Shown in pieces: positions 3,491 through 29,188 of a DNA stretch of 64,000 nucleotides (positions within the stretch are counted from its first letter, which is position 1; each line of letters begins with the position of its first letter). The notes under the pieces are model-generated. The model searched no databases. It was not told where the DNA came from and saw only the letters and a list, made by a program, of their open reading frames with translations. The DNA comes from Candidatus Omnitrophota bacterium (GTDB taxonomy: Bacteria > Omnitrophota > Gorgyraeia > JAFGHF01): positions 892,064-956,063 of the forward strand of contig CP070837.1 of the NCBI GenBank assembly GCA_020341815.1, in the 5' to 3' direction. Both the position numbers and the translations under genes were made by a program.

Positions 3491-3580
3491 CTCACTGAAA
3501 TCACTGAGATTATTACACTGAAGCCACTGAGACTTTATTCAGTGTTCTCAGTGTTGCTATTCAGTGTTCTCAGTGTCTCT
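3491..3580. repeat. CACTGA-rich hairpin element, copy 1 (second copy at 29101-29188)
   Basis: About 85% identical to the copy at 29101-29188. It contains direct repeats CACTGAGAACACTGAATA and their inverted complements, and overlaps the last 13 codons of the giant gene. Confidence 0.7.
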
Positions 3581-6500
3581 TGATTGATATAGTAAGTCTT
3601 ATCCTCTGTGGTTATTCTCCATACCGGGTAAAATGGTGAAGTGGTAAGCTCAGGTGAATAGACAAGCTCAGCCTTAATTTCAGCGGGCTCTTCTTCACTC
3701 TGGGCCAATACCTTCTCTATGGCTTCCTCTTTGCTAATCTGGATAAACCTTACCGGCTCATCCACCCAGGAGGCCTGTTTAAAGTAGCCCTCTTCCCTAT
3801 CAATGATTATGGCAGCATAGCTTAAGAACTGCCCCTGGAAGAAGTTGTCAAAAGGAACGAGGTAATAGTCCTTGCCTGCCTTATCCAGTCTTTGGACAGG
3901 GATAAAGCTTCTGGCAATAGAGCCCTGGATGCTTTGGGTGAACTTCTCGTCCGTAAGAAGCGAAGGGTCGATTATCTCTTTCCAGTTTATCCGGGAAGTC
4001 GCTTCGTTTTCCGGTTTGAAGATATTTAAGAGGTCTTCCTCTATGGTGTAAGAGATTAGCTCCTGCTCTTCATTAAGATTAACCACCAAGGCCCTGTCTA
4101 AAAGGTGCTTCTTGACAGGGTCGGTACTTTCTCCTGAGAGATAATCAGCTATCCTGACCAGTTCCCGGGTAGATTCATTTATTCGAGGTTCGGCTAAAGA
4201 GACCTCAGCATCACTTGGTTCAGAGGGCGGCTCAGCTACCTGAAGGTATTTGCCCTTATAATCATCTTCGGCCGTAAGAGGCAGTAGCATTGTAGCCTGG
4301 CATTCGCCAGCTGTGAGATAGTTATCCTGGCCTATGCCTTGGCCTTGCGGGTCAGTCAGCCAGAGGCCGTAGACCGTAAAGTTGCTAAGGTCTGAGAGCC
4401 GATGGTAACGGCTATGCGGCTCAAAGGGATAGGGGTTCATATCACAGGCTGCACCGTTTATCACCAGCCAGTGCCCGTATGTTCCGTAGGCAGGCACTGC
4501 AGCTGGCGTGTAGGGCTCTGCTACTAGGTCGGTTTCATCCTGGTAATTGTGCCAATCTTCCTTTGTGACAGGATAGGCTATCCAATGAGTGATGTCTCTT
4601 AGGTATTCCTTGAATTGGTCGGGTTCATACTCCTCAATGCCAAAGTTGTATCCATAGTTAGAACGACCTCCAGCTGGAGCATCACCTTCACCCAAGTTGT
4701 CATAATAATCAAAATGCCCCAAGGCATAGTCTATAGCATGAGGGTCCATTTCATCAAGGGAGGCTTTGTTGTAGGGATGGCCGTATTCATAGATCTCAAG
4801 CTGTGAGGGGGTATCATCTTCAGGACGCATCAGGTCTATAATCATCTGAGCGCTGGCTGCGCCTGATGAGGCAAAGTTATAAGGCTCAGGGAGTAACTCT
4901 TCGGCGTAATACTCAGGCAAGTCTATATGCAGAACCCAGCCTTTAAAGACTGAGATAGAGTCTTCGCCTTCGTTACCTGCTGCGTCTGTAGCAATAACCT
5001 TGACGATATTCCTCTGTCCTTCCCCTTCTATAGTTACGCCGGATGCAGAGAATGTCCCGTCACCCATATTGTCTGCCGATGAGTAATTTGTGTTAGCTCC
5101 TGTTACCTCTATTTCAACAGTTGCAGTATCATCATCTATCGTGCCTGATATGTCTATCAAGACATCATTAACTCCGGAATTATTAGCCGGATTGGTGATG
5201 GTAACCTGAGGTGCGGTCCTGTCAATGGTAAAGGAGACGCTGCCTGAGGAGCTATTGCCGGCCTCATCAGTAGCAGTTAAGGTAATAGTATAGTCTCCTT
5301 CTTCGGTATATGTATAAGTAGGAGGAAGATCATTATCACTGGTAACAACAATCTTATCCCCACTTGAACGGTCATCCTCTACTGTATAAGTTAAGGTAAC
5401 ATCCTGATTGGTCGGAGTAGATACAGGGTCAATACTGATTGTGGGTGGGGCGGTATCCGGTGAGTTCTCTAACTCCACTGTTATGCTCTGCCATGGAGAT
5501 TGATTTCCCGCTGCATCTATTGCCCGGGCTTCAAATGTTAGCGTTGAGCCGGGAGCTAAGGTGTCTGTCTGGACCAGCCCTGCCACAAAAGACCAATTGC
5601 TTATATCTTCTATGGTGACCGACACTCCTGCGTCTTCTCCATTTATCTTCGTCTCTATGGATTCCAATCCTGAATCATCTGTGGCAGTGCCGGAAAAGCT
5701 TAATGAAGTTCCTATTTGAATCTTTGCTCCGTCTTCCGGATAAGTTATAGCAACAACCGGAGGTGCGATATCTACATTGTTTACGGTTATAACGATTGTT
5801 TCCTGATTACTCCTAAGAAGTTCTTTATCGTATGCCCAGCAGGTCAATCGATAGTCTCCTCCTGCCTGGTCATATGTTGGTGTCCAACGAACAACACCTG
5901 CTTCAAACACGGCTCCTATTGGTACATCTACCCCTGCATTTTCCCATCCGTACCATACTTCCTCTCCATCGGGATCGCTGGCGGAAGGCGTAATAACTAA
6001 CTCCTGATTTTCATCTATTGTGCGATTTCCTATAGGATTTAAGATAGGCGCACGATTGACATCATTTACGGTAATCGTTACTTCTTGAGAATCAATAAAA
6101 CTGCCGTCCGAGACTGTAACTGTTACTTTATGCACTCCGGCATCATCGAATGTTGTGACATAGGTTTGCTCAATCATCCATCCAGAATAGCTATAGGTTA
6201 AAATGTCTTCTTCATCGGGGTCGGTAGCAGAAGGCGTAATAGTTATAGTCTGACCCTCAGTTACGGTTATATCGGCTATTTCATTCAGAACCGGCGGATG
6301 ATTATCGGTGAAGATAGCCTTATAATGATATCCCATATCTACCTGGTTTATATCAGGCTGAGCATTTGTACGGGTAGTATAGTTATAATTAAAGCCAAGA
6401 TTAATTGCTGCATCACTTCCTGCATCTACACAGGGTGAATATTTGTCAAGATAATATTGTCCCTGCGGTCCCTCCACAAAAAGCGGGTACATAAAGATGT

Positions 6501-8835
6501 TGCCGTCAGTATAATTACAATTACCATAATTGGCCTCTGTATTATTACAAATATTATTATAAGAAAGAGTGGGGTGGGTATTGGGAGTATAGGCATATAT
6601 CCCCCCGTTATTATTGGTTATGATGTTATTTCTGATGATCGGGCTGAAAGAAGGAGCATCGGCGATACAAACTATTCCTCCTTTACCGCCATTGCCAACA
6701 ATGGTATTATTTTCTATAATCAACTGTCCATCGGCATCAAGACCTCGACAGTAAATTCCTGCATAAGTATTATCTATTAGCAAATTATTGAATAAATTTC
6801 CGTAGGCGTTAATACTGTCAAAACCGCCTTTTTTATTTTCGGAAATTTGACAATCTCTTATCTCAAAATTAATTGAAGGCTTTCCAAAAATATAGATTCC
6901 ATACTCACTATTCTCTCTTACAATACAGTTTTCTATTGTAATTAAACAATTTGAACTACCTTCCACTCTAATGCCATGCCATGCATTTTTGATTATCTTA
7001 CAATCCTTAATAAGCATTGTAGAAGTAAGCTGTTCGTAGACATAGACACCGGACCAGGCACTCTCAGTAATGGTAACACCATCGATCACTACATCGCAGG
7101 CATTATAGAATCCTATTCCACCTTCGATAATGGTTTCGCAGAGCTCGATATTGCGTGTCCAATTAGTTGACTCATATCCGCCTAACAAAATAAATTCCTG
7201 CGGAAAGTGCGGGCTTGTTACATATGTGCCTTGAGCAACACAAATCTTTGTCCCTTTGGTGGTACGCTTCCACAAATCCTTTAAATCTTTGTATGGATTA
7301 TCCTTGCTGCCGTCTGCTTCTACTGAGGCGCTATTGGCATCCACATAAATAATAGGGATTGCCTGTTCCATATCGCTATATGTGCTGTCAATCTCAGATG
7401 TATAATAGGTATGCAGGCGATAGTAATAGACAATGCCTCCTGATTCAGCCACATCATTATCGGTAAACGTAGTAATTGCAGCATCGGATATATCGCTGCC
7501 AAGCTGAACCCAGGAAGCAGGATTTTTCGGAGTTGCAGTGCGATAAATACGGTAGAAACTAAAATCGGGATTGGTTTCCTCATCCCAGTTTAATTCTACG
7601 GAAGCTAAATCCTCTGACCATTTAACTCTTGGCTCATCTAATAACTCTTGGTTGACATTAAAATCATATCCACCATTGTAGGCAGCAATGGAATAAAAAC
7701 TTGTATCGATAAACCTTAACCACCAATCTGCATTAACACCATCCTCAGTCCAGTCTATCCAGCTACCAGTTATACCATTACCATCAGGAACAGTTTGCCA
7801 GAGACCACTTTCTTTAGCCCAAGTAAGGGCAGAATTAAGATATGACTCTTGGCCTATATCAAGCCAACAGAGTGATGCCTGAAAGGAAAACCCGGGAGAC
7901 TTCCTATTTTCCTCTGCGCCGTCATTCCAGACCACAGCCCCATCTTCTTTTTGCAGGGTATTATGTATCCACTCCCCTACCTCTTCTGAATTTACGCCCC
8001 TGCAAGGCAAATCCAGCATCTGAGGAGCATAATTAATCCATTCATGCAATCCGGGGTCTTTGGGTATTCCGTTTTCATCAATCTTTCCGTGCCAGACACC
8101 AAAATCAGAGCTCTCAGGATCATCTATATATAAGTACTCATCAATACCTTCAATTATGCGCTTTGCAGCATAATCGCAGACTTCAGAGAAGTCTGTATCA
8201 CCTTTAATCATTGCCCACTTCTGCGCTGCCTTTAATGCCTGGTAGGCATAGGCATTATCAGAAGCCCAGCGCCAGAAGCGATAAATGCCTGAGGCATCCT
8301 TGCCGCCCCCTAACAATCCGTCATCGTTACCGCCTTTATTTTCGAGTTCCTGGCAAGATATAAGATAGCCCGCACCTTTTTTCATAGAATCATATCTATC
8401 TTCCCTGTAACCCAATTTATAAAAGGCAATCATTACTTCTGCTGTCTGAGTGGGTGACTTAGCCCAATCCACGACTTCAGAGTAGCTATATTGATCGCAC
8501 CAGGCCCCATCGTCTTCTTGTTGAATGCTTATCAAATAATCGGCAGCTAATTGGGCCCTTTCTAAATAGGAAGTATCTTCTAATATATCTGAAGCCATAA
8601 TAAGTCCTAAAATCGCCATGGCATTTTCACGCGGAACTATCCAGGTTGGGCTTCCATAGACGTTATTTATACACCCGTATGCAGAGTCTGCCTGCTCCAT
8701 AAATTGACATTTAAGGATATAATCGGCCTCTGTTTTGACCAACTCTGAATCGGCAAAAGCAATACCGGAGGTGCTTGCCAAGAATAAAACTAAGCAACTC
8801 AACATTATACCTTTTAATAGATTCTTAAGTCTCAT
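3535..8835 (-). CDS. Giant secreted multidomain surface protein (about 1,767 aa): signal peptide, prenyltransferase-like alpha/alpha-toroid repeats, FN3, right-handed parallel beta-helix (PbH1 repeats), cadherin-like/Ig-like repeats and a C-terminal C39-like (Cys->Ser) domain
   Basis: Start placed at the Met of MRLKNLLKG...AFA (8835), which forms an ATGA overlap with the upstream stop. QxxDGxW repeats. FN3 motif (SVELNWDEE...FYRIYR). Many beta-helix turns (NCLITIENCIVRENSEYGIYI, IRDCQISENKKGG, IENNTIVGNGGKGGIV). DPD-rich Ig-like repeats (ITITPSATDPDEEDILTYSY). The C-terminal SSGAASAQMII...GHWLVINGA resembles a peptidase_C39_2 core with Ser in place of Cys. Confidence 0.8.
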   Translation of the reverse strand: MRLKNLLKGIMLSCLVLFLASTSGIAFADSELVKTEADYILKCQFMEQADSAYGCINNVYGSPTWIVPRENAMAILGLIMASDILEDTSYLERAQLAADYLISIQQEDDGAWCDQYSYSEVVDWAKSPTQTAEVMIAFYKLGYREDRYDSMKKGAGYLISCQELENKGGNDDGLLGGGKDASGIYRFWRWASDNAYAYQALKAAQKWAMIKGDTDFSEVCDYAAKRIIEGIDEYLYIDDPESSDFGVWHGKIDENGIPKDPGLHEWINYAPQMLDLPCRGVNSEEVGEWIHNTLQKEDGAVVWNDGAEENRKSPGFSFQASLCWLDIGQESYLNSALTWAKESGLWQTVPDGNGITGSWIDWTEDGVNADWWLRFIDTSFYSIAAYNGGYDFNVNQELLDEPRVKWSEDLASVELNWDEETNPDFSFYRIYRTATPKNPASWVQLGSDISDAAITTFTDNDVAESGGIVYYYRLHTYYTSEIDSTYSDMEQAIPIIYVDANSASVEADGSKDNPYKDLKDLWKRTTKGTKICVAQGTYVTSPHFPQEFILLGGYESTNWTRNIELCETIIEGGIGFYNACDVVIDGVTITESAWSGVYVYEQLTSTMLIKDCKIIKNAWHGIRVEGSSNCLITIENCIVRENSEYGIYIFGKPSINFEIRDCQISENKKGGFDSINAYGNLFNNLLIDNTYAGIYCRGLDADGQLIIENNTIVGNGGKGGIVCIADAPSFSPIIRNNIITNNNGGIYAYTPNTHPTLSYNNICNNTEANYGNCNYTDGNIFMYPLFVEGPQGQYYLDKYSPCVDAGSDAAINLGFNYNYTTRTNAQPDINQVDMGYHYKAIFTDNHPPVLNEIADITVTEGQTITITPSATDPDEEDILTYSYSGWMIEQTYVTTFDDAGVHKVTVTVSDGSFIDSQEVTITVNDVNRAPILNPIGNRTIDENQELVITPSASDPDGEEVWYGWENAGVDVPIGAVFEAGVVRWTPTYDQAGGDYRLTCWAYDKELLRSNQETIVITVNNVDIAPPVVAITYPEDGAKIQIGTSLSFSGTATDDSGLESIETKINGEDAGVSVTIEDISNWSFVAGLVQTDTLAPGSTLTFEARAIDAAGNQSPWQSITVELENSPDTAPPTISIDPVSTPTNQDVTLTYTVEDDRSSGDKIVVTSDNDLPPTYTYTEEGDYTITLTATDEAGNSSSGSVSFTIDRTAPQVTITNPANNSGVNDVLIDISGTIDDDTATVEIEVTGANTNYSSADNMGDGTFSASGVTIEGEGQRNIVKVIATDAAGNEGEDSISVFKGWVLHIDLPEYYAEELLPEPYNFASSGAASAQMIIDLMRPEDDTPSQLEIYEYGHPYNKASLDEMDPHAIDYALGHFDYYDNLGEGDAPAGGRSNYGYNFGIEEYEPDQFKEYLRDITHWIAYPVTKEDWHNYQDETDLVAEPYTPAAVPAYGTYGHWLVINGAACDMNPYPFEPHSRYHRLSDLSNFTVYGLWLTDPQGQGIGQDNYLTAGECQATMLLPLTAEDDYKGKYLQVAEPPSEPSDAEVSLAEPRINESTRELVRIADYLSGESTDPVKKHLLDRALVVNLNEEQELISYTIEEDLLNIFKPENEATSRINWKEIIDPSLLTDEKFTQSIQGSIARSFIPVQRLDKAGKDYYLVPFDNFFQGQFLSYAAIIIDREEGYFKQASWVDEPVRFIQISKEEAIEKVLAQSEEEPAEIKAELVYSPELTTSPFYPVWRITTEDKTYYINQETLRTLNSNTENTE

Positions 8836-9506
8836 TTTTCCTCTCCCATTCCCATTGAAAATGCTTCTTGTGCAATTTTTAACCATCTTTTATCCTTGCT
8901 AATAACGTTAAAATTCTTTAATTCAATATCTGTTGTAATCTCCTCGGCCTCTATAATTTCATTTGGGGTCCTAATGATACAATTGCCTTCGGCCAGAAGG
9001 GTTTTATCTTGATTATTCCATTTTAGTTCATTGCAAGTTAACACTCTTTTATCTTCCGTGGTCAGGGTTGCATTTCCGTAAAGCTCTACACCCTTGCTTA
9101 AGGAATTGACTACAGCTGTGCGGGCGCACGCTGTGGAAACCGCAAGGTTATTTTTATAAAAGGAGATTTTAGGCTTTTCTACTTCCATTACCTTGCCTAC
9201 ATTTATGCGAAAGATCCCGAATTTTGGGCTTTTTGTCTGTAAGCGCTCACCGGATAAGATATAGCTCTTCTCTGCCCTGCTGCTTATTTTTGCATATTCG
9301 GTAAAGCTGAAATTTCCGACATCAAGATTCTCTGCACCGGATGAGGCCCTTGAAGACTGGATGGATTCTAACCCTCTGCGGATAATTACTTCTTTGGACT
9401 TGCTTCTATTTATAATACCAATGCATAAAAGCACAATACCCAAAACAGCAATGGGTAGCACAAATATAGTTATTAGCATTTTCTTGATGTTTTCAGGATT
9501 TGTCAT
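8832..9506 (-). CDS. Membrane-anchored LptC/OstA-like protein, translationally coupled to the giant gene
   Basis: N-terminal TM helix, then a beta-rich domain with LYGNATL / AEGNCII motifs reminiscent of the LptA/LptC OstA fold. Stop TGA overlaps the downstream ATG. Confidence 0.4.
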   Translation of the reverse strand: MTNPENIKKMLITIFVLPIAVLGIVLLCIGIINRSKSKEVIIRRGLESIQSSRASSGAENLDVGNFSFTEYAKISSRAEKSYILSGERLQTKSPKFGIFRINVGKVMEVEKPKISFYKNNLAVSTACARTAVVNSLSKGVELYGNATLTTEDKRVLTCNELKWNNQDKTLLAEGNCIIRTPNEIIEAEEITTDIELKNFNVISKDKRWLKIAQEAFSMGMGEEK

Positions 9507-9531
9507 ATCTTTGTTTGGATTGGCATAGATT

Positions 9532-9582
9532 AATAAAAAGCCACTAAGGGCTCGCCTTTTTCCTCCGCCTAGTGGTTTTTTA
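9532..9582 (-). terminator. Terminator-like hairpin inside the 5' leader of the LptC-like/giant-protein operon (candidate attenuator)
   Basis: AAAAAGCCACTAaGGGC...GCCtAGTGGTTTTTT. There is a U-run on the minus-sense side, and the hairpin sits 20-70 nt upstream of the start codon and downstream of the predicted promoter. Confidence 0.35.
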
Positions 9583-9651
9583 TAAAAGTATGAATAAAGA
9601 CTATCTTGTAGGTCAAGACTTATGCAACTACTTTATAAAGTAATAAAGTAT

Positions 9652-9680
9652 AATATAGCAAAATGCAGGACATCTGTCAA
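9652..9680 (-). promoter_or_regulatory. Sigma70-like promoter (TTGACA, 17 nt spacer, TATATT) for the LptC-like/giant-protein operon
   Basis: Minus-strand TTGACA at 9680-9675 and TATATT at 9657-9652, with exactly 17 nt between them. Confidence 0.5.
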
Positions 9681-9775
9681 GAAAAATTATGAAACAATTT
9701 TTCGCAGACCTCGTGGCGAAGCTTTACGGGTCAAGGATTTTTTTTGACCGTAGAAATGTCCATCGAAAGGCAGTT

Positions 9776-10138
9776 TTAGATGCTTTTTTGGCGGTAATAG
9801 GAATAGACCCGGCCTACATCAAGGGGGTCAATGGTAATGAATTTTATACCAGTTTCATGCAAATTAATGCTTTGACCGGCTCTTTCGATTATTCCATAAG
9901 GCTTGGTCCAGACAACCTCACCCACGCCTCTAATGGCCCTCTGGGGATTGTCCGGAACGGTTATCTCCACTTCCAGTATTGTGCCTGCCTGGAGCTTCTC
10001 GGTTAAACAAACCCCCATTCCCCCGCCTCCGATATTCTGGGGCAGGGTTTCGATCTTTTCTCTATCCCGGCCCTGCACAGCATAGCGCACATTGGCAATA
10101 CCACCAAGCCGATGAAAGACTCTTCTATCTTTAGACAT
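9776..10138 (-). CDS. PilZ-domain protein (c-di-GMP receptor)
   Basis: RRVFHR (RxxxR) and NIGGGGMGV (D/NxSxGG-type) motifs. Confidence 0.8.
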   Translation of the reverse strand: MSKDRRVFHRLGGIANVRYAVQGRDREKIETLPQNIGGGGMGVCLTEKLQAGTILEVEITVPDNPQRAIRGVGEVVWTKPYGIIERAGQSINLHETGIKFITIDPLDVGRVYSYYRQKSI

Positions 10139-10150
10139 AATAACACCTCA

Positions 10151-10495
10151 TTATCTGGTATGGTAAAACTTTACCAGATGGCTGCCTTCAAAAAAAAGAT
10201 GCTGGGTTTCTGCAAGATAATCTACATTTATAGGCAAATTGGGGTAACGACCGTGATAAATCCATTCTTCCTGCACCATGCCCTGGGCATCGCTCTTGAC
10301 TACATTAACTATATCGGGGTCGCCCCACAAGGAGCGCACCTTCTCCTTGGTCATTCCTGTACGTAACGGACTTTCTCCTAATGGCTGGCGCATTATATCT
10401 TCGGGCGTAGGCGGGCTAATTTCGCTGCAGCCGGCAGAAAACAGCGCAAGAGCTAATCCTAAAAAGATTACGAGTTTATTCAGACTAAACCCCAT
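10151..10495 (-). CDS. bamE: BamE/SmpA-OmlA-like outer-membrane lipoprotein
   Basis: Lipobox FSAGC, then a GMTKEKVRSLWGDP motif typical of BamE. Confidence 0.55.
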   Translation of the reverse strand: MGFSLNKLVIFLGLALALFSAGCSEISPPTPEDIMRQPLGESPLRTGMTKEKVRSLWGDPDIVNVVKSDAQGMVQEEWIYHGRYPNLPINVDYLAETQHLFFEGSHLVKFYHTR

Positions 10496-10988: not shown

Positions 10989-10992
10989 ATCT

Positions 10993-11442: not shown

Positions 11443-11448
11443 CTTTGT

Positions 11449-13700: not shown

Positions 13701-13701
13701 C

Positions 13702-14127: not shown

Positions 14128-15234
14128 TCACAAGCTCTCTGCTAAATATTTTATCGAACAGACCATCTTCTCTGCCTCTTTATAGGCGGCGGAACTCTTT
14201 CTTATCTTGTAACCGGACATCTCTCCTTGGCTATCGTAAACGCCTCTTAAATGAATAATCAAGCGATTAGCGACCAAAGGGCTAGCTTTTGGCGAATTTC
14301 CTATCTCGACTCTATAATAAAGCTTATTTCTTGTAAAAGGCCCCCACTCCTGCCGAATCTGCTCAAACAGGGAAATATCTTTTTCTTTAAAGGCCTGCAA
14401 ATTATATTTTGCGGGGTCGGCGGAAGTAATAAAACATCCGTGTTTTTTAAACACATCTATAACGGTGGAATGTATAGCTCGTTTGGAGGCGTTGATATCA
14501 ACAATTATGCTTTCCGGCTCAACCCTAACAGCTGCCTCCAGAACTTCTCCGGCCTTCTCCAACATTGCGGAGGCCTCTCTATTTTTGGGATTCAGCTTCA
14601 ATATTTCCTGGAGTTTCTCGGCGGCCAGTTCATATTCCATTTCTTTAGAATATCTCCTGGCCTGGATAAGAAGTTTCTCCACTCTATCGCGCCGGGAGGC
14701 CTTCTCTACCTTATCGAGCAATTCAAGGGCCTCTCTATTGTCCGGATCCAGCCTCAAAACCTCACCAGCCTTTTTTGTAAGCTTTAGATAATCCTTATCC
14801 TTGAAATAATCCTGGGCCTCCTTAAGAAGCTCATCTACCCTATCATGCAGAAGTTCCTTTCTCTGTTCTCGGCCAAGCATGGTCTCTTTTATGAACGGCT
14901 TTACTATATCGCCGACTTTAATAGTCTTATTTTTATAAGTACATTCTATATCGGCTCCGGTAAACTTCTTACGCACTTTCGCTGCCTTAATTTCGGCGAC
15001 TTCTGCACCCTGGCGGTAGACCCTAAAGGAGGAATCCTGCTTGATGCCGTCGTTAGCCCCTAAATCGAATATGACAAAACCCATATTTTTATCGACATAT
15101 ACAACACGCCCCGAAGACCCTTGAGCAAAACCAGATGTGCTTATAAATACAAACACAGAAATTAGCATGACAGATCTTAATAATCTCTTCATTGGTCTAA
15201 TCTCTCCTTTTGTATTCTGTACCCACAACCTCAA
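14128..15234 (-). CDS. Secreted hypothetical protein with TPR-like/coiled-coil repeats
   Basis: Signal peptide. Repeated LRLDPDNREALELL / LKLNPKNREASAML units. Has a 4 nt overlap with the upstream CobA-like gene. Confidence 0.5.
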   Translation of the reverse strand: MRLWVQNTKGEIRPMKRLLRSVMLISVFVFISTSGFAQGSSGRVVYVDKNMGFVIFDLGANDGIKQDSSFRVYRQGAEVAEIKAAKVRKKFTGADIECTYKNKTIKVGDIVKPFIKETMLGREQRKELLHDRVDELLKEAQDYFKDKDYLKLTKKAGEVLRLDPDNREALELLDKVEKASRRDRVEKLLIQARRYSKEMEYELAAEKLQEILKLNPKNREASAMLEKAGEVLEAAVRVEPESIIVDINASKRAIHSTVIDVFKKHGCFITSADPAKYNLQAFKEKDISLFEQIRQEWGPFTRNKLYYRVEIGNSPKASPLVANRLIIHLRGVYDSQGEMSGYKIRKSSAAYKEAEKMVCSIKYLAESL

Positions 15235-15740
15235 TATTCTATTCCCGCCCGGGCAACAATACCACTTTTATAATAATGCTTTAACTCTTTAATATCACTT
15301 ACCAGGTCTGCAATTTCCAAAATCTCAGGATGAGCATCTCTTCCGGTGAGAACTATCTCCAGGCGCTGGGGCCTGTTTTTTAAGATCTTTTTGAGTTCTC
15401 CGAGTTTAAACAGACCGAAGTTAAGGGCGACATTGGCTTCATCTAAAATTACTAAATCGTATTTGTCGCTTTCTATGGCTTCCTGGCTGGCGGCTAATCC
15501 CTTTTGCGCAAGCTGTTTATCTTTTAAGGACACGCTCTCGCGGCAGATTCTTTCCCCGGAGCCTGCCTGCAATATCTTAATTTTACGAAAACGGCGAAGG
15601 GCTTTTATCTCGCCGAGGTCCTTCCCTTCCTTCATAAACTGAACCAGAAAAACTCGCCTTCCCTGCCCCAGGGCCCTTAAGGCAAGCCCTATGGCTGCGG
15701 TGGTTTTGCCCTTACCGTTACCGGTATAAACTTGTAACAT
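15231..15740 (-). CDS. Cob(I)yrinic acid a,c-diamide adenosyltransferase family protein (CobA/CobO/BtuR)
   Basis: VYTGNGKGKTTAA...VQF.KEG...LDEANVAL...TGR..HPEILE.ADLVS similarity across the whole length to BtuR. Confidence 0.8.
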   Translation of the reverse strand: MLQVYTGNGKGKTTAAIGLALRALGQGRRVFLVQFMKEGKDLGEIKALRRFRKIKILQAGSGERICRESVSLKDKQLAQKGLAASQEAIESDKYDLVILDEANVALNFGLFKLGELKKILKNRPQRLEIVLTGRDAHPEILEIADLVSDIKELKHYYKSGIVARAGIEY

Positions 15741-15845: not shown

Positions 15846-15997
15846 AGTCAATAATGTATGATTCCCACGAGCCGATAAAGCTAGAGGCTTTATCTCACGC
15901 ACCTCCCATGCTCCGGCAGCCCAACTACCATCTCGGAGAATGCCTGTATGTTTATTTCGACAACCTTAAAGGGAGATGTTTTTTTGGCTCCCTTTTC

Positions 15998-16092
15998 TAC
16001 ACGGCGTCCTTTTCATCTACGGCATTTCTTCCGATTTAGGCTTGCGGCTTTGCGTCCCAGCCTTTCGACTGGTTTGCCTTTATCGGCTCTAT
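15998..16092 (-). ncRNA. c-di-GMP-I (GEMM) riboswitch aptamer, copy 1
   Basis: Minus-sense AAGGCAAACCAGUCGAAAGGCUGGGACGCAAAGCCGCAAGCCUAAAUCGG... This matches the GGCAAACC-P2(GNRA GAAA)-GGGACGCAAAGCC-GCCUAAA core of V. cholerae Vc2. Confidence 0.7.
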
Positions 16093-20403: not shown

Positions 20404-20964
20404 TCACGTTATAATCTTAAGAATTTCATTTATACTAAGACCAAATTCTTTTGCCAAATTTATAAATAAACTTAAGAGTTGAACTACATTTGACACAGAG
20501 CCAAGTGAGCTTTTAAATCTTTGCAAGAAACTTCTTTCTTTACTCCCTTCTCTGTAACTAGGAAGTTTCTCATCAACTTTACTTTGAATATCAAGAAGCA
20601 TTTGAACATAAAAAGATTGGTTTTGCTGCTGACTTTGGCTTATGACTGTATTTGGACCACCACTAAAAGGTGCAGGTTCATTAGCAAAATACTCACCATG
20701 AAGGTTTGTAATTAAACCGCCTAACTTCTGTCGGTATGTAATAAGCGGCAAGGCTTCATTGCCGCTAGGTAAACGTTGAGGGTTAACACAAAAACGGTTA
20801 TAATCTTTTCCCGAAGTCTGGCTAACTAAGCTTACGCAGTTATTATATTGTTCCCATACAGATTTGTCGTATATATAAACATTGGGGTTTTCTGGAATTC
20901 CTGGTGCTTGTGAAAGATATCCTTGCAATTCTGAATATAAAGGTCTTAAGTTTTCTTTTTCCAT
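20404..20964 (-). CDS. Hypothetical protein, AT-rich island gene 2
   Basis: No recognisable family. Markedly lower GC than the flanking genes. Confidence 0.6.
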   Translation of the reverse strand: MEKENLRPLYSELQGYLSQAPGIPENPNVYIYDKSVWEQYNNCVSLVSQTSGKDYNRFCVNPQRLPSGNEALPLITYRQKLGGLITNLHGEYFANEPAPFSGGPNTVISQSQQQNQSFYVQMLLDIQSKVDEKLPSYREGSKERSFLQRFKSSLGSVSNVVQLLSLFINLAKEFGLSINEILKIIT

Positions 20965-21013
20965 GTAATTGTTCTCCTGAACCTAACTAAGGGTTTGCTA
21001 TGCGGACACTATT

Positions 21014-21718
21014 TTACAAATTCTTGAGATATCCAATCAAATTTTGTTGTATAATGGAGCGCCCTTTTAAAAAGCCTTTAAGAATACTATTTAATTGTGA
21101 AAGTCGTATAAATTTTTCTTCGTCGTCAAATTGATGCAAATTTTCTTTCATTATTAATAAATCATATTTTTTATTTGGAAATAAGGCTACTGCAACATAT
21201 GGAGCTCTTGAGTGTAGAAAAAGATTTCGATGTATGTCTAAAATAGCAAACCATTCATACGACTCCCCAGATTCTTCAATCATTTCTTGAATTCTTTTAC
21301 CGACATCTTTTTTTTGTAAGCTTTCACCGGTATGCAAATATATCTGTTGCAGAAACTTCGCCATTAATTCACAGCATGAATTAAATTCAAATAGAAAAGA
21401 ATCGATATCAATCAGTAACTTATATTTAAGTGTGTCATCGACCTTAAATGCATAACCAACTTTAGTCGGTGTTGAAATGTATTTATGATCTATGTTTGCT
21501 ATCTCTTTACATAATTTTCTATATTTTTCATTTATTCTCTTTATAATCCTAGGAAACATATTCGACCTGGTAGAAATAGATAACCCAAGTTGACCAAAAT
21601 CCTGGGGAAATTTTTTAATTTTTCCCCTCTTGAAGGCATCATTGATTGCTGAATAAATTGGTAAAACCCATGGATCACCACCCACTTCCATTATATGCAC
21701 CCACTGATTAATTTTCAT
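21014..21718 (-). CDS. Hypothetical protein, AT-rich island gene 1 (possible HEPN-like Rx4H motif RNLFLH)
   Basis: No recognisable family. AT-rich. An Rx4H motif lies in an alpha-helical-looking C-terminal half. Confidence 0.6.
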   Translation of the reverse strand: MKINQWVHIMEVGGDPWVLPIYSAINDAFKRGKIKKFPQDFGQLGLSISTRSNMFPRIIKRINEKYRKLCKEIANIDHKYISTPTKVGYAFKVDDTLKYKLLIDIDSFLFEFNSCCELMAKFLQQIYLHTGESLQKKDVGKRIQEMIEESGESYEWFAILDIHRNLFLHSRAPYVAVALFPNKKYDLLIMKENLHQFDDEEKFIRLSQLNSILKGFLKGRSIIQQNLIGYLKNL

Positions 21719-23008: not shown

Positions 23009-23889
23009 TCTCTAAACAACTCCACAAACTTTTCTTTATAGAGAAACTCTCTGATTATATCCTGGCTTTCCGAAAAATCCAGAGGCTCAGCGGGTTCTTT
23101 CTTATCCACCTTAAAAATACGATACCCCTGAGGACTCTTTATTACATCGCTAAACTCACCAATCTGCAGGCTAAAAATAGCCTTATCTATCTCTTCAATT
23201 AACTGGTCCTTCTGCACAACACCCAAATCCCGCTCCAATTCCTCAAAGGTTTCGCCATTTCTCAGGCGCTCAAGAATACTCTTGGCCTTTTGCAAGGCCG
23301 CGTATTCACTCTGCTGTTCATCCTTCTGGATAAAGATGCTTTTGACGTGGGCCTTCTCGGGCCGTTTAAGTTCGCTTTTGTGCGACTGATAAAATTTCTC
23401 TATCTCTATGGGGTCAATTTTGATTTTAGACCTTACAAAATAATCAACGGCCTTTTTCATAGTCTCCTGGGCGCTAAATCTATCCCGCAGGTCTCCTAAC
23501 GTAAGGCCCTGGTCTTCGATGGCCCACTCAAAGTCCCGTTCGCTGGGAAAGGTCTGCTTGATTTGCTCTATGCGCGCATCTATCACGCTCTCATCAATCT
23601 TGATATCATATTTTTTGGTCTCACAGAGGATAAGCTTTTCCTCCAGCATCTGACTAATAACGTTTTCTTTTGCCTGAAGAAACTTCTCGCTAAACTCCTC
23701 GGGATCCGTATAAATGATTTTGTATTCGGTCTCAATTGTAGCTAAGACTCTGTCCACATCCGTCTGGGCAATTACTTCATCATTTACAACGGCAACTATT
23801 CTGTCGATTGTCTCTGCCGCCAAAGGCTGCATAAAAAGTAAACCCAAGCTCAAGATCAACAAAATCTGTAATTTATTTTGTCTAGTCAT
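22963..23889 (-). CDS. surA: SurA-like periplasmic chaperone/peptidyl-prolyl isomerase
   Basis: Signal peptide, SurA N-terminal-like domain and PpiC-type PPIase (SPQGYRIFKV). surA-pdxA synteny as in enterics. Confidence 0.7.
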   Translation of the reverse strand: MTRQNKLQILLILSLGLLFMQPLAAETIDRIVAVVNDEVIAQTDVDRVLATIETEYKIIYTDPEEFSEKFLQAKENVISQMLEEKLILCETKKYDIKIDESVIDARIEQIKQTFPSERDFEWAIEDQGLTLGDLRDRFSAQETMKKAVDYFVRSKIKIDPIEIEKFYQSHKSELKRPEKAHVKSIFIQKDEQQSEYAALQKAKSILERLRNGETFEELERDLGVVQKDQLIEEIDKAIFSLQIGEFSDVIKSPQGYRIFKVDKKEPAEPLDFSESQDIIREFLYKEKFVELFREWVGELKQSAYIKIN

Positions 23890-25783
23890 TTTTGGAAACC
23901 TCGCTTATAGTCTCTCTGAGTAAACGGCAGTACAGGTCGAAACCTACAGCCTGAATCCAGCCGTGTTGCTGCGTACCCAGGAGGTTGCCTGCTCCGCGAA
24001 TCTGCAGGTCTTCCAGGGCAATCTTAAATCCCGAACCAAGCGCAGCAAAACGCTCAATTGCCTTAAGCCGCTTTAAGGCAGTCTCTCCCCAGGCATACTT
24101 GCGCGGAATAAGAAAGTAGGCGTAGGCCTTATATTTAAAGCGCCCGACTCTGCCCCTTAACTGGTAAAGCTCAGCCAGGCCAAAGCGGTCGGCGCGGTTG
24201 ACAATAAGTGTGTTGGCATTGGGTATATCGATACCCGACTCTACTATTGTGGTAGAGACCAATACATCGATATTGCCCTTGATAAATGATAGCATAATTT
24301 CTTCAAGCTCTCTCTCGGCCATCTGGCCATGAGCGCTTGCGATTTTTGCCTGCGGGACAATAGTCTCAATTCTTTTGGTAACCTTATCTATATCCTTGAC
24401 CCTGTTATGGATGAAAAAACACTGGCCGTGCCGGGTGAGTTCTTTGTTTATACTCCTTTTGATTAAATCCTCATCATATTCTACGACACGCGTCTCAATA
24501 GGCACTCTGCCCAGGGGCGGCGTATTTATTATGGACATATCACGCGCGCCCATCAGGGACATATATAAGGTGCGCGGGATAGGCGTAGCAGTCAGGGTCA
24601 ATACATCCACCAGGAGCCTGAAGCGTTTCAGGCTCTCTTTGTGCTTTACGCCGAAACGCTGCTCTTCATCGATAATAACCAGCCCTAAATCCTTAAATTT
24701 TATATCCGCCGAAAGCAACCTATGGGTGCCGATGATTATATCTACCTTACCCGCTCTGATCTCAGCAATAATCGCATCCTGCTCTTTAGCGCTTTTGAAT
24801 CTGCTGAGCATCTGCACATTTAGGGGAAAATCCTTCAGCCTCTGGCTGAAGGTATAATAGTGCTGCTCGGCAAGGATAGTGGTGGGCACAAGCATTGCCA
24901 CCTGTTTATTATCCATTACCGCCTTAAAAGCGGCGCGCAGGGCAACCTCTGTTTTTCCGTATCCCACCTCCCCGCAAATCAACCTGTCCATGGGCCGTTC
25001 GGACTCCATATCCCGTTTCACCTGGCGCATAGATTCAGTCTGGTCGGGCGTATCCTGATAAGGAAAAGACTTCTCCAGCTGTCTCTGCCAATCATTGTCG
25101 CGAGCAAAGCGATGTCCCTTTAAGGCATAACGGGCCGCCTGCATCCTTAAAAGTTCCGTAGCCATCGAAACAATACCCTTTTTGGTTCTGTTTTTTATGC
25201 CCTGCCAGGTCTTTGTGCCCAGCTTGGAAAGCTTCAAAGGACGCCTGCCGAGAAAAGCAATATATTTGTTGACCAGGTGCATCTCGCCGGTGGGCACATA
25301 AAGCTTATCCCCATCGGCATATTCAATCAGCATATGGTCAAGGTACTTTCCCCCTGACTTTATCTTTTTTATTCCCTGATACCTGCCGATGCCGTGATTG
25401 ACATGGACCACATAATCGCCCAGCTCCATATCAAGGAAATTATCAATGGGCAGCTTCTGTCCCAGATGGGCATAATTTTTTTTGACCTGGCCGTTTTTGA
25501 AAACATAGCGCGGCAGGATAATCACCAGATTATGCCTGTCCAGGGTTCGGCCGGAAATTACATCAAAACTGCGGATAGAGTTTATCCGCTCACCCATAAA
25601 CTCAAGACGCACCGGCCCTTCAAAGGTTACCGGAAAGATATCCAGTATTCCCCCGCGCAGGCAAAAGTCGCCCTCCTGATTAACCTCTGCAGAGGATTGA
25701 TAATTATATTCCACCAGGGTACGGACTAAGTCTTTAGGCGGGATACTTTCTTTAACATATAGTTTAAGAGAGGAAAACATCAC
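23882..25783 (-). CDS. mfd: Transcription-repair coupling factor Mfd, N-terminally truncated form (633 aa; lacks the D1a/D2 UvrB-homology module)
   Basis: CarD-like RNAP-interaction domain (DYVVHVNHGIGRY) and SF2 helicase motifs (GYGKTEVA, DEEQRFGV, QLRGRVGR). The start abuts the argS stop, so there is no room for the missing N-terminus. Confidence 0.8.
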   Translation of the reverse strand: MMFSSLKLYVKESIPPKDLVRTLVEYNYQSSAEVNQEGDFCLRGGILDIFPVTFEGPVRLEFMGERINSIRSFDVISGRTLDRHNLVIILPRYVFKNGQVKKNYAHLGQKLPIDNFLDMELGDYVVHVNHGIGRYQGIKKIKSGGKYLDHMLIEYADGDKLYVPTGEMHLVNKYIAFLGRRPLKLSKLGTKTWQGIKNRTKKGIVSMATELLRMQAARYALKGHRFARDNDWQRQLEKSFPYQDTPDQTESMRQVKRDMESERPMDRLICGEVGYGKTEVALRAAFKAVMDNKQVAMLVPTTILAEQHYYTFSQRLKDFPLNVQMLSRFKSAKEQDAIIAEIRAGKVDIIIGTHRLLSADIKFKDLGLVIIDEEQRFGVKHKESLKRFRLLVDVLTLTATPIPRTLYMSLMGARDMSIINTPPLGRVPIETRVVEYDEDLIKRSINKELTRHGQCFFIHNRVKDIDKVTKRIETIVPQAKIASAHGQMAERELEEIMLSFIKGNIDVLVSTTIVESGIDIPNANTLIVNRADRFGLAELYQLRGRVGRFKYKAYAYFLIPRKYAWGETALKRLKAIERFAALGSGFKIALEDLQIRGAGNLLGTQQHGWIQAVGFDLYCRLLRETISEVSKND

Positions 25784-27462
25784 ATCTTCTCTGGCGTCGA
25801 GACGGATAAAAGGCGCAATCCATTATTAAGAACAATCCTTGCCGCATCCGCCAATACTAATCTGGCGGAAGTAAGCTGCGCCTCATCCGTGACTACCTTA
25901 TGTTTCTCATAATAATGATGAAAGGCCCGGGCAAGCTCCTGTAAATAAGCAGTAATTCCGTGCGGCTCGAGATTAAGCGCGCAGGAAGCTACCATAGTCG
26001 AAAACTTGCCCAATACCTGAACAAGATTCAATTCCTCCGGTTTATTCAGTAAGGACAAATCCACTTTTTTATCGATAACTCTTTTGTAACCTTCGGCGCT
26101 TTTTGCAAACTTTAAGATATTTACGATGCGGGCATGGGCATACTGAATATAATAGACCGGGTTCTCCAGCGAGTGCTTCTTAGCCAGCTCTAAATCAAAC
26201 TGCAGGTGCGAGTCTCGTTTTCTCATCAGAAAGAAAAACCTGGCCATATCCTTGCCCACCGCCTGAATAATATCGCGCAGGCTGACAAATTGTCCCTGCC
26301 TTGTAGACATGGGGATAATTTTATCGGCGGAAGACAAACTAACAAGCTGAACTATTAAAACTTCCAAACACTTAACATCGTGCCCCAGGGCGCTGACTAC
26401 GGCCTTGATTCGAGGGATATAGCCGTGGTGGTCGGGCCCCCAGACATTGAGCATTTTGGAAAAACGGCGTTTGTATTTAGTCTGGTGATAAGCGATATCG
26501 GGAGCTATATAAGTAAGCGTAGAGTCGCTTTTAATCGCTACCCTGTCTTTATCATCTCCGAATCTGCTGGTAGCCAGCCACCAGGCGCCTTCTTTTTGAT
26601 AGAGAAAGCCTTTTTTCTTCAGGAACTCCAAGACGTTAGCAATCTTGCCTGTTTTGTTTAGATGCCTCTGGCTAAACCAACAATCGTATTCTACTCCGAA
26701 CTCTTTTAATTCTTCTTTTATTTCTTTTAGTATCTTGCTGTAAGCAAAGCGGGAAAAAAAGGATAGGTTTTTATCGGCATCTTTGGTGAGTTTGCGGCCG
26801 TATTTTTGCACAAGCTCACCTGCCAAGTCATCAATATATTTTCCCCTGTATCCTGCCTGAGGGAACTCTGCCGCCAACCCCAGAAGCTGAAAATATTTAG
26901 CGCGAACCGAAGCGCCCAAAATATCTATCTGCACCCCTTCGTCGTTCAGGTAATACTCCCTGAACACCCTGTATCCTGAAAACTGCAAAATATTTGCCAG
27001 GGTATCGCCAAATGCCGCCTGGCGAGCGTGGGCTACATTAAGGGGGCCTGTGGGATTGGCGCTGACAAACTCCAGATGAACCTTTTTGCCCTTGCCGAGT
27101 GATGTCCGGCCGAAATTACTTTTTTTCTTTCTTATCTCCAGGAGAACCCGATACAGATAGTCCTTGCTCAGGAAGAAATTCAGAAAACCTCCCCCGGCAA
27201 CCTCAACCCTTTCGATCTCCCCGCCAAGCATTGAACGCTTTAGCTCCTCTTCGAGCGCCTGGCGCATCTTGCGGGCAATTTCTAAAGGGGGTTTGCCCGT
27301 TTTTTGGGCAATACTTAAGGCAATATTACAAGAGATATCTCCAAATTTCTTAAGCCTGGGGCGGGATAGCGTTATAGAAAGAACTTCCTTCAATAGGCTA
27401 AACTCCTCGCTCTTTTTTATTACTTTTTTAAGCAGTTCTTCTATTCTTTTCTCGATATCCAT
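25780..27462 (-). CDS. argS: Arginine--tRNA ligase
   Basis: Full-length ArgS with an anticodon-binding DALR C-terminus. Confidence 0.95.
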   Translation of the reverse strand: MDIEKRIEELLKKVIKKSEEFSLLKEVLSITLSRPRLKKFGDISCNIALSIAQKTGKPPLEIARKMRQALEEELKRSMLGGEIERVEVAGGGFLNFFLSKDYLYRVLLEIRKKKSNFGRTSLGKGKKVHLEFVSANPTGPLNVAHARQAAFGDTLANILQFSGYRVFREYYLNDEGVQIDILGASVRAKYFQLLGLAAEFPQAGYRGKYIDDLAGELVQKYGRKLTKDADKNLSFFSRFAYSKILKEIKEELKEFGVEYDCWFSQRHLNKTGKIANVLEFLKKKGFLYQKEGAWWLATSRFGDDKDRVAIKSDSTLTYIAPDIAYHQTKYKRRFSKMLNVWGPDHHGYIPRIKAVVSALGHDVKCLEVLIVQLVSLSSADKIIPMSTRQGQFVSLRDIIQAVGKDMARFFFLMRKRDSHLQFDLELAKKHSLENPVYYIQYAHARIVNILKFAKSAEGYKRVIDKKVDLSLLNKPEELNLVQVLGKFSTMVASCALNLEPHGITAYLQELARAFHHYYEKHKVVTDEAQLTSARLVLADAARIVLNNGLRLLSVSTPEKM

Positions 27463-27495
27463 GTTATGAACACCCGGAGAGTGAATTTTTTAGGA

Positions 27496-28584
27496 TTATT
27501 GGGGTAGCGCAAGCCCCTGCGCCTTCAAAAAGGCATTAACGACTCTGGGATCAAATTGCGTGCCGGAACACCTTTTTAATTCGCTACAGGCCTCTTCGCT
27601 GGAAAAAGCTTTGCGGTAGGGACGGCGGGAAACCATAGCTTCATAGGCATCGGCCACAGCCAAAATTCGCGAGCCGATAGGAATCTTTCTATATCTCATA
27701 TTTTTATCGGGATATCCACCGCCTGCGTAACGGGCATGGTGATGCAAAATTATGGGCACCAGATTACTTAAGCTGCCGATATTATTGATTATTTTCGCAC
27801 CTACCCGGGGATGTCTATAGATACTCCTCCACTCGGTTTTACTGAGCTTCCCGGGCTTTCTTAGTGTATTGATATCAACGCAGACTTTACCTAAATCGTG
27901 AAGATAGCCCGCATATTGCAGGGCGTCTTTCTGTAGCTCAGACAGCCTCAATTCAGAGGCAATCTCCAAAGCCAGGGCCGCTACTTTTTCTGAGTGGCCG
28001 GCGGTGCAGGAGTCTTTGGCATCCAGGGCATTTGCCAGAAATTTTATGGCGCCGATATAATTCTCGCGCGCCTTTTCATATAATCTGGCATTAGAAATAG
28101 AAACTGAAGCACCCGCGGCAAAAATGGAAAGAAGCTTGACGTCCTCTTTATGAAAATGATGAGGAGCTTCGCTGTAAACACTCAAGACCCCGAAGGCCTT
28201 ACCTCTGTCCACCAAAGGCACCGATAGAAGCGAACGCAAATTTTCCTTCTGAGCAATAAAGGCATGTTGATAGCGGGAATCTTTAAATAAGTCCTTGACG
28301 ATATAGTAGTGATTTTCCTTTACTACCCTGCCGGCAATACTTTCACCGACTTTTATGCCGCCCTTACGCAGGTGAGAACGCTTATCTAACCCATAATGAG
28401 CCTTGAGAATTAATTCCTTCTTATTTCTATGAAGTAATCTTAAGGAACACCCTTCAGCCTGCATAATTTGGCAGGCCTTTTTGGTTATCAGCTTCAATAC
28501 CTGACTCAACTTCAAGCTTGAGGTGATAGATTTATTTATCTCATAAAGCGCTGTAAACTCTTCAGTCTGATTATTTCGAGCCAT
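27496..28584 (-). CDS. GAF-domain HD-GYP phosphodiesterase (c-di-GMP hydrolase family)
   Basis: N-terminal GAF. HD motifs (HSEKVA, LHDLGKV) and HHHARYAGGGYPD. Confidence 0.8.
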   Translation of the reverse strand: MARNNQTEEFTALYEINKSITSSLKLSQVLKLITKKACQIMQAEGCSLRLLHRNKKELILKAHYGLDKRSHLRKGGIKVGESIAGRVVKENHYYIVKDLFKDSRYQHAFIAQKENLRSLLSVPLVDRGKAFGVLSVYSEAPHHFHKEDVKLLSIFAAGASVSISNARLYEKARENYIGAIKFLANALDAKDSCTAGHSEKVAALALEIASELRLSELQKDALQYAGYLHDLGKVCVDINTLRKPGKLSKTEWRSIYRHPRVGAKIINNIGSLSNLVPIILHHHARYAGGGYPDKNMRYRKIPIGSRILAVADAYEAMVSRRPYRKAFSSEEACSELKRCSGTQFDPRVVNAFLKAQGLALPQ

Positions 28585-28990
28585 GGTCTTTTAAAGTTAT
28601 CTGCGGGACATCCCCCCACAAGCGTTCCAGATCGTAAAAATCTCTAACGGGAGCGTGGAAAACATGTACCACTATATCGCCGCAATCCAATAATACCCAA
28701 AGCGCGTGGTTATATCCCTCGATATGTCCGGCTCTTTGCCCTTGCTCTTTTAGCCTCTCAATAATATGATCGGATATAGCTTTAACCTGGCGGGCCGAAG
28801 TGCCGCTACAGATAATAAAAAAATCTGTAATGCCGGAGGCCTTCCTTATATCCAATATTACTATATCCTGCGCCTTTTTGTCCTGGGCAGTTTTAGCGAT
28901 AAACAGCGCTTTGGAACGGGACTTTATTTTGCCACCCCTTCCAGTTAACCCTTCATAATCCTGAAAAGAGAGGTCCCGCATACGGGGCAT
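28571..28990 (-). CDS. rsfS: Ribosome silencing factor RsfS (Iojap)
   Basis: DIVILDIRK...FFIICSG signature. The 5' end overlaps the small zinc-ribbon ORF, so the true start is uncertain. Confidence 0.8.
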   Translation of the reverse strand: MPRMRDLSFQDYEGLTGRGGKIKSRSKALFIAKTAQDKKAQDIVILDIRKASGITDFFIICSGTSARQVKAISDHIIERLKEQGQRAGHIEGYNHALWVLLDCGDIVVHVFHAPVRDFYDLERLWGDVPQITLKDHGSK

Positions 28991-29085
28991 TTGCCCTTCA
29001 TTGCCTTGCGACCGTTCTTCAAGGTCACCTCTTTGGCATCCTTCATTTCCTTCTTGGCTTTACACTTGACACAATATGCTTGCAT
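28945..29085 (-). CDS. Unannotated 46 aa zinc-ribbon protein (DUF5679-like: MQAYCVKCKAKKEMKDAKEVTLKNGRKAMKGKCPVCGTSLFRIMKG)
   Basis: Strong RBS AAAAGGAGGTGTAAG-ATG. CxxC...CxxC motif. Not in the ORF track because it is shorter than 60 aa. Confidence 0.6.
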   Translation of the reverse strand: MQAYCVKCKAKKEMKDAKEVTLKNGRKAMKGKCPVCGTSLFRIMKG

Positions 29086-29100
29086 CTTACACCTCCTTTT

Positions 29101-29188
29101 ACCACTGAAATCACTGAAATTGTTACACTGAAACCACTGAAGTTTTATTCAGTGTTCTCAGTATTATTTACTCAGTGCTCTCAGTGTT
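29101..29188. repeat. CACTGA-rich hairpin element, copy 2
   Basis: About 85% identical to 3491-3580. It supplies the stop codon and last codons of nadD and precedes the RBS of the zinc-ribbon ORF. Confidence 0.7.

Follow-up and report, generated by a model that had tools for sequence, protein, structure and literature searches.

We examined a 64-kb stretch of the genome of a Candidatus Omnitrophota bacterium (contig CP070837.1; we call the whole stretch the window, and coordinates are positions in it unless another contig is named). The window contains two copies of a short hairpin element built from the hexamer CACTGA. We think it fairly probable that these two sequences represent a new family of non-autonomous, palindromic dispersed repeats that resemble REP (repetitive extragenic palindromic) sequences and MITEs (miniature inverted-repeat transposable elements). 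The evidence comes from the shared architecture of the two copies, from relatives that lack the element at the same gene junctions, and from hairpins of the same design in many other genomes.

Two hairpins built from one hexamer

At both sites, the surrounding genes are encoded on the minus strand, which is also the sense strand of the element (Table 1). Read in this direction, both copies start with GARACACTGA. Each has CACTGA-nnn-CACTGA, a spacer of 7-8 nt, a second CACTGA-nnn-CACTGA, and an A-rich loop of 8 nt, and then TCAGTG-nnn-TCAGTG, a spacer, and another TCAGTG-nnn-TCAGTG. With four forward and four inverted units, the entire element, at 83-84 nt, is an inverted repeat. In copy 2, one unit (29158-29163) deviates and reads TACTGA in the sense direction.

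An earlier reading of the window, made from the sequence only, had described a two-copy CACTGA element with direct repeats, their inverted complements, and about 85% identity between the copies. All of this was confirmed. The two cores match at 72 of 84 positions (86%; 85-89% by other measures), and the pattern CACTGARnnCACTGA, with at most one mismatch, occurs eight times in the window, every time inside the two elements, where shuffled sequences would give 0.03 matches. We searched the 64-kb window for a third copy and found none beyond these two; our copy count for this genome covers the window only.

With just two copies in the window and such short units, one might think of chance similarity, simple sequence, or an assembly artefact. 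Besides the excess of matches, the identity extends over 84 nt and includes the spacers. Also, an independent Logan contig (L120) contains copy 1 with 100% identity, and the same architecture is found in many other genomes. We regard an artefact as hardly conceivable. The genome of the window is also present in Logan run SRR14739666. There, the de Bruijn assembly is interrupted in the loop of copy 2, where the contigs L118 and L119 end and overlap by 28 nt (29132-29159); copy 1 was assembled through.

As RNA, each copy is predicted to fold into one long interrupted hairpin. The minimum free energy of the sense strand is -38.0 kcal/mol for copy 1 and -39.8 kcal/mol for copy 2, with z-scores of -5.8 and -8.6, and none of 200 shuffled sequences was equally stable. 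All three reading frames of the sense strand are closed within 39 nt (copy 1) or 21 nt (copy 2). On the antisense strand, one frame stays open across the whole element; a protein search with the antisense peptide that the element encodes gave no matches.

Table 1. Coordinates of the CACTGA elements, their neighbouring genes, and related or additional repeats.
Feature	Sequence	Position	Strand	Remarks
Copy 1 core	window	3493..3575	minus	CACTGA-module hairpin element
Copy 1 5' arm	window	3575-3539	minus (sense)	units 3570-3575, 3561-3566, 3548-3553, 3539-3544
Copy 1 loop	window	3538-3531	minus	
Copy 1 3' arm	window	3530-3493	minus	
Copy 2 core	window	29103..29186	minus	
Copy 2 5' arm	window	29186-29149	minus	
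Copy 2 loop	window	29148-29141	minus	
Copy 2 3' arm	window	29140-29103	minus	
Surface protein gene (beta-helix/PKD/Ig), 1783 aa	window	3535..8886	minus	upstream of copy 1
Signal-peptide protein gene, 152 aa	window	3015..3473	minus	downstream of copy 1; Shine-Dalgarno GGAG 3481-3484
nadD (nicotinate-nucleotide adenylyltransferase)	window	29181..29786	minus	upstream of copy 2
DUF5679 zinc-ribbon gene, 46 aa	window	28945..29085	minus	downstream of copy 2; Shine-Dalgarno GGAGG 29092-29096
Cargo region	L034	4943-6851		forward CACTGAT arm 5005-5042, inverted arm 6814-6851
Nested GC-rich hairpin	L033	3315-3403		
Nested GC-rich hairpin	L070	709-790		
Nested GC-rich hairpin	L026	3918-3990		
Second repeat family	window	40837-40934, 41451-41548, 55589-55646, 61048-61145	minus	
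Second repeat family	L120	4963-5028		

Relatives with empty sites

Each copy supplies the end of the gene upstream of it. The 5' arm of copy 1 is translated as the last 13 codons of the surface protein (TLRTLNSNTENTE), whose C-terminus reads ...INQ ETLRTLNSNTENTE*, as the sequence-only reading had stated; in all, copy 1 provides the final 13-14 codons (about 3538-3579). Its stop codon, TAA at 3535-3537, lies within the loop of copy 1, and another TAA (3488-3490) immediately follows the copy. For nadD, the first CACTGA unit of copy 2 provides the TGA stop (29181-29183), also as proposed, and the former stop, TAA at 29099-29101, is still present just 3' of copy 2.

To see what these junctions look like without the element, we turned to relatives. 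In one of them (L146, from run SRR24270831), NadD is 95% identical, and 20 kb of the region align collinearly with the window, with a nucleotide identity of 92-95%. The gap between nadD and the zinc-ribbon gene is just 12 nt there, and has no element. The empty site reads ...GTTAAAATAAA-ACACACT-TAAAGGAGGTGTAAGATG, and the filled site in the window reads ...GTTAAAATAAA-GAAA[CACTGA...TCAGTG]G-TAAAAGGAGGTGTAAGATG, which places copy 2 immediately 5' of the old nadD TAA. Two independent assemblies of a 66% relative (L147 and L148) have the same 12-nt junction, again without the element.

For the surface protein, about 40 homologues of its C-terminal domain end in ...YFVTQxGEVIxxx, and the protein from the window lacks the GEVI tail after INQ. 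A 64-67% relative (L149) has the same pair of genes (64% identical), the surface-protein gene and a 153-aa ortholog of the signal-peptide gene, 27 nt apart, with no element between them.

Because the element is missing from the nadD junctions of L146, L147, and L148, this comparison of sequences establishes copy 2 as an insertion gained in the lineage of the window, and the native C-terminal codons of both upstream genes have been replaced by the element. Copy 1 was very probably gained in this lineage as well. By this evidence copy 2 is younger than the split from the 92-95% identical relative, yet it is just 86% identical to copy 1, so copy 1 would not be its direct parent. Further source copies should therefore exist in this genome.

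The suggestion of a mobile miniature element inserted into gene 3' ends is supported by the empty sites, by the replaced C-terminal codons, and by the multi-copy family that we describe below.

The same 20 kb contains a second lineage-specific insertion. Two extra genes in the window (186 and 234 aa; 20404-21718, minus strand), between pdxA and a pantothenate kinase gene, have no Pfam match on record and are missing in L146 (17682-17688).

A family of hairpins in other genomes

To look for relatives of the element, we scanned one genome per species, requiring four direct units only, and we scanned metagenomes, requiring the central two plus two units only. Every search for the family used the CACTGA hexamer alone, and all counts are among the matches listed. 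We found at least 39 distinct elements of the 4+4 hairpin type. They are from metagenome-assembled genomes (MAGs) of Omnitrophota, Verrucomicrobia, and Chlamydiales, from Chloroflexota, and from unclassified metagenome contigs. Two MAGs from Latescibacterota have related clusters of four-unit arms. In the metagenome scan, 22 of the 25 loci have hairpin-type unit clusters; none of the listed matches belongs to the subfamily of the window.

Some genomes have many copies. Omnitrophica MZGK01 has 10 unit clusters on six contigs, DAOWIN01 (Omnitrophota) has at least four, and multiple elements per contig or genome are also seen in L052 (three) and L130 (two). The copies within one genome have spacers and loops in common, which is the signature of copying from a master. 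Across the family, the terminal extensions GAAYCACTGA...TCAGTGRTTC are often shared. The GC content of the flanking DNA ranges from 35% to 68%, and the GC fraction of the non-unit positions (0.12-0.75) tracks it, and the hexamers stay CACTGA.

The sole long version that we saw is in L034. Its arms (">>>>" and "<<<<") enclose 1.8 kb with two toxin-antitoxin pairs, HepT/MNT and DUF433/DUF5615-PIN, and this segment has a predicted strong sigma-70-like promoter. An additional lone inverted arm lies 27 nt upstream. Because they bracket a cargo, the arms can apparently behave like transposon ends. No transposase was found near any of the listed elements.

These CACTGA-module hairpins apparently form an undescribed repeat family: a search of the literature for the motif and for repeats of Omnitrophota found nothing relevant.

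Direct-repeat searches are dominated by something else. Long one-directional CACTGA arrays with a 9-nt period are found in many bacteria and in giant-virus and phage contigs (L134, L141, L144, and many of L001-L117 and L150-L176). They appear to be repeats that code for tri-peptides, or satellites, and have no relation to the hairpins. Most of the 42-nt matches from the genome scan were set aside for this reason, as unrelated one-directional tandem repeats. Similarly, in viral contigs we found no hairpin-type elements: the 27 direct-repeat matches are all one-directional 9-nt tandem repeats of the coding type.

In MAGs of Omnitrophota, small GC-rich hairpins (such as CCCGCCTGAGGCGGG and GTCCGAAGtttcgCTTCGGAC) are nested in the CACTGAT arms or directly follow them (Table 1). 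They point to another very small palindromic insertion that targets parts of the element or takes their place.

Placement at tight operon junctions

We analyzed the placement of the elements in low-GC genomes, where calls of open reading frames (ORFs) are reliable, and with conservative gene calls. With the element itself removed from the gap length, 9 of 15 elements are in gaps of at most 40 nt between co-directional genes. Such gaps make up 4.4% of the non-coding bases (p = 2e-9 for the enrichment). Similarly, both copies in the window are in junctions of at most 30 nt; of the 2.6 kb of non-coding DNA in the window, such junctions account for about 12%. There are also half elements in the family, and copies in large gaps or between divergent genes.

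The neighbours are housekeeping genes: elements lie at remA|gmk, at rplB|rpsS in the S10 operon, and upstream of fmt, panC, and gpsA. They also occur between pilin genes. The sequence-only reading had tied the element to small secreted proteins and zinc ribbons downstream, but given genes such as gmk, fmt, panC, gpsA, and rpsS at other copies, that link is coincidental; the general rule is a tight junction between co-directional genes. The stop codon of the upstream gene is typically in the 5' arm (in unit 1, in unit 3, or in a spacer), and the ATG of the downstream gene is 0-21 nt beyond the last unit. In the window, the last unit is 8 nt (copy 1) or 6 nt (copy 2) from the GGAG, and not 10-15 nt as had been thought.

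A strong hairpin right after a stop codon could be an intrinsic terminator, or a switch between terminator and antiterminator, as the direct repeats permit alternative pairings in shifted registers. The sequence-only reading had suggested such a module between two cistrons. On the sense strand there is no U-tract 3' of the hairpin (the tails of the copies read AGUAAGAAGGAG / AGUAAGAAGG and GUAAAAGGAGG), and a terminator scan found no terminator-like site at either element of the window. Rfam 15 gave no family at the gathering score, and just sub-threshold matches (at most 22 bits) of a generic, miRNA-precursor-like kind. Moreover, the downstream genes have intact Shine-Dalgarno sequences and start codons and are in conserved operons, such as nadD-DUF5679-rsfS. 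A role in termination is very unlikely.

Another idea is that the element acts as DNA. In this case, eight hexamers on the same face of the helix would bind a chromosomal protein, with a role in nucleoid organisation, segregation, recombination, or replication, and the potential to form a hairpin would be incidental. Multimeric DNA-binding sites typically have this form, an invariant hexamer with a 9-10 nt period, first direct and then inverted. Conservation of the hexamers does not depend on GC content, and there is no significant strand bias. But such an array would have no reason to sit exactly at stop/start junctions within operons, and its presence differs among close relatives. Also, genome-specific subfamilies with common spacers and loops point to copying from a master and not to independent evolution of sites. 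We think this explanation is improbable.

Mobile repeat or selected hairpin?

Although we prefer the interpretation as a dispersed repeat, and the elements are probably mobile, several observations weigh against it. First, we found no target-site duplication when comparing the filled and empty sites of copy 2; instead, 7 nt of the target (ACACACT) were lost. Second, none of the 148 ORFs that flank the elements is a transposase or HUH-type gene, and no transposase family recurs, so the mobilising enzyme is hypothetical. Third, the universality of the hexamer is partly an ascertainment effect, as CACTGA alone was searched for. Fourth, there are signs of constraint on one old copy. Two species have the element at rplB|rpsS, in the orthologous loci L124 and L139, which share 87% identity along 4.9 kb. 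The element differs at just 2 of 84 positions, as compared to about 9% in the coding flanks and 5 of 24 (21%) in the 3' spacer. This hints at constraint, or at homogenisation by other copies, rather than pure junk.

TA, TAAA, and AAGA were considered as target-site duplications at copy 2 and were rejected, as both "duplicates" are already in the empty site. The flanks of other copies in the family do not have a consistent target-site duplication either.

The rplB|rpsS pair also shows another way to reach an overwritten gene end. L139 (1725-1771) retains the stop codon of rplB and 23 further nt. In L124 (5183-5210), 23 nt that include the rplB stop were lost between short AAAAAGG direct repeats, and rplB (ribosomal protein L2) now ends at the CAC TGA of unit 1. 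So, deletion after insertion can also produce the overwriting.

The slow change at rplB|rpsS, within the S10 operon, is in line with the idea that the hairpin is a cis-acting form of punctuation between cistrons that is selected by the host, with mobility as a secondary property. It would be read by a sequence-specific factor or by a double-strand RNase and would set the relative stability of the mRNA or the translational coupling of the neighbouring cistrons. The extreme enrichment at co-directional stop/start junctions agrees with this, as do the hexamers, which do not vary with the GC background. Of 10 cases in the CACTGAT subtype, 7 have the downstream ATG within 0-5 nt after the last unit, so that a folded stem would bring the stop and the start together. 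In 11 of 15 elements, the RNA of the sense strand is more stable than the antisense. This, like the G-U asymmetry, is just a trend: the difference between the strands does not reach significance (sign test, about 0.06; the pairs are not independent), and the orientation of the subtypes relative to the genes is mixed (about 6:3). The same junctions lack the element in close relatives, and the half elements and the copies in divergent or large gaps do not fit either. Furthermore, the spacers show no covariation, and paired units decay without compensation. A selected role as RNA, including the transcript processing that the sequence-only reading had mentioned, is possible, but as the main explanation for the element, punctuation has just a modest chance of being correct.

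A broader version would have one punctuation system that spans phyla and is recognized in a sequence-specific way between the stops and starts of operons, including ribosomal-protein operons. In this scenario, a protein or RNase would read the eight hexamers, for processing, stability, or re-initiation, and would also copy the element to new junctions. We consider this combination doubtful.

How a mobile repeat could persist between genes

If the elements are mobile repeats, then the hexamer arrays could be the binding modules for a trans-acting enzyme, either a transposase or a domesticated relative of one, that is encoded elsewhere. This would explain why the hexamers are constant at 35-68% GC while the spacers drift, and why the arms can flank a 1.8-kb cargo.

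Persistence at operon junctions would be due to the stops that the leading arm has in all three frames of the sense strand, which limit the change in the upstream protein to a few residues, gained or lost. A further reason would be that the original Shine-Dalgarno sequence and start codon of the downstream gene, located a few nucleotides beyond the 3' arm, stay intact. The element would then be co-transcribed and would fold into an interrupted duplex of roughly 30-40 bp within the polycistronic mRNA. Likely side effects of this duplex are to separate the cistrons and to block 3' exonucleases or to offer a site for a double-strand RNase. These effects, on the stability, processing, or coupling of the mRNA, would be modest at most and are probably weak or neutral, with the old rplB|rpsS copy as the one that looks constrained.

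Other features of the window

The gene order downstream of copy 2 continues with rsfS, which comes after the zinc-ribbon gene. Its longest ORF (28571-28990, minus strand) has 139 aa and shares 46 nt with the zinc-ribbon gene. In relatives, RsfS is called as a 94-aa protein with a later start, and the true start in the window is probably near 28855.

The window contains two cyclic di-GMP-I riboswitch aptamers that are above the Rfam gathering threshold, both on the minus strand: 15912-16088 (69.8 bits) and 52120-52202 (59.7 bits). The first is upstream of an ORF for a BtuR/CobO-type corrinoid adenosyltransferase (15231-15740), which seems, to our knowledge, an unusual partner for this riboswitch. 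Downstream of the second is a 114-aa ORF that has no match in Pfam.

A second repeat family has four copies in the window and another in L120 (Table 1). Members of this family have ACCCCGCCCTTCTT as one arm, about 45 nt upstream of AAGAAGGGCGGGGT, with which it pairs. In the first two copies, AAGAAGGGCGGGGT encodes the K-R-R-A-G start of prepilin-like genes (the N_methyl motif), and the hairpin encloses the Shine-Dalgarno sequence and the ATG. This hairpin could provide translational control of pseudopilin genes.

Finally, a 432-aa ORF (911-2209, plus strand) combines a LAGLIDADG_3 domain with a Cys-rich motif at the N-terminus and a helix-turn-helix (HTH) of the transposase/resolvase type at the C-terminus. 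It may be a mobile gene of the homing-endonuclease kind. A 71-aa ORF (2234-2449, plus strand) resembles its C-terminal HTH and is followed by the largest non-coding gap of the window (2450-3014; 565 nt). The 432-aa ORF has no relative in PDB by sequence. We considered this LAGLIDADG/HTH gene as the mobilising enzyme for the CACTGA elements and set it aside, as we found no evidence that links the two.

Comparison with known repeat families

The CACTGA elements add a structurally distinctive and apparently undescribed family to the small palindromic repeats of bacteria. As far as we know, such repeats have hardly been studied in Omnitrophota and other members of the Planctomycetes-Verrucomicrobia-Chlamydiae (PVC) group, or in Chloroflexota and Latescibacterota. 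With about 96% of the genome coding, repeats persist only at the stop/start joints within operons, where they rewrite C-termini and donate stop codons. This bears on how streamlined genomes tolerate selfish DNA. There are practical consequences as well: annotations acquire spurious tails and shifted stops, and de Bruijn assembly breaks in the hairpin loop. An invariant hexamer at 35-68% GC also points to a recognition protein that would be worth finding.

In many ways, the elements resemble REP sequences and their composites (BIME and REPIN). Both are dispersed, multi-copy palindromic repeats of about 80-100 nt that form a long imperfect hairpin, have genome-specific subfamilies, and are located at transcribed extragenic spots between or after the genes of operons. 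Neither makes a target-site duplication, and both can persist at orthologous sites. REP hairpins stabilise upstream mRNA, as at malE-malF, and REPs come with a Y1 (IS200-like) RAYT gene in the same genome, which is usually flanked by the repeats; we saw no RAYT gene among the 148 ORFs that flank CACTGA elements at other loci. In contrast to REPs, with their imperfect palindrome of 20-40 nt and GTAG-like head, CACTGA elements have no GTAG-type head, and their arms are four direct hexamers instead of palindromes. The hosts differ too: REPs and REPINs are found in Proteobacteria, and CACTGA elements in Omnitrophota, other PVC phyla, Chloroflexota, and others.

Like the MITEs of bacteria (Correia/NEMIS of Neisseria, ERIC/IRU of Yersinia, and RUP and BOX of pneumococci), the elements are small, have terminal inverted repeats, do not code for anything on the sense strand, and are present or absent at orthologous sites of relatives. 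They likewise insert next to or into the ends of genes, can supply stop codons, and fold in the mRNA. Transcripts of Correia and ERIC elements are substrates of RNase III or RNase E, which alters the stability of the flanking cistrons. However, those MITEs make TA or other duplications, and copy 2, with its resolved junction, made none. They also have simple terminal inverted repeats of about 26 nt, a site for integration host factor, or modular boxes, whereas the CACTGA element consists wholly of repeated hexamers. We did not find a related full-length insertion sequence among the 148 flanking ORFs.

Multiple subterminal repeats that bind the transposase are known from Tn7- and Mu-type ends and from the hexamer repeats of plant Ac/Ds. 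They too have several short direct repeats per end, inverted between the ends, much like the arms that bracket the 1.8-kb cargo of L034. But the CACTGA elements are not known to resemble such ends in sequence, we found no transposase, and they have a much smaller period (9 nt) and size. Rickettsia palindromic elements also invade coding sequence and add residues to proteins. Unlike the CACTGA element, which ends the frame and rewrites just the C-terminal tail, those insert in frame and are translated through.

Overall, the CACTGA element works like the REP/REPIN and MITE families, yet it is a distinct variant, because it has neither the GTAG-headed unit of the former nor the target-site duplication of the latter.

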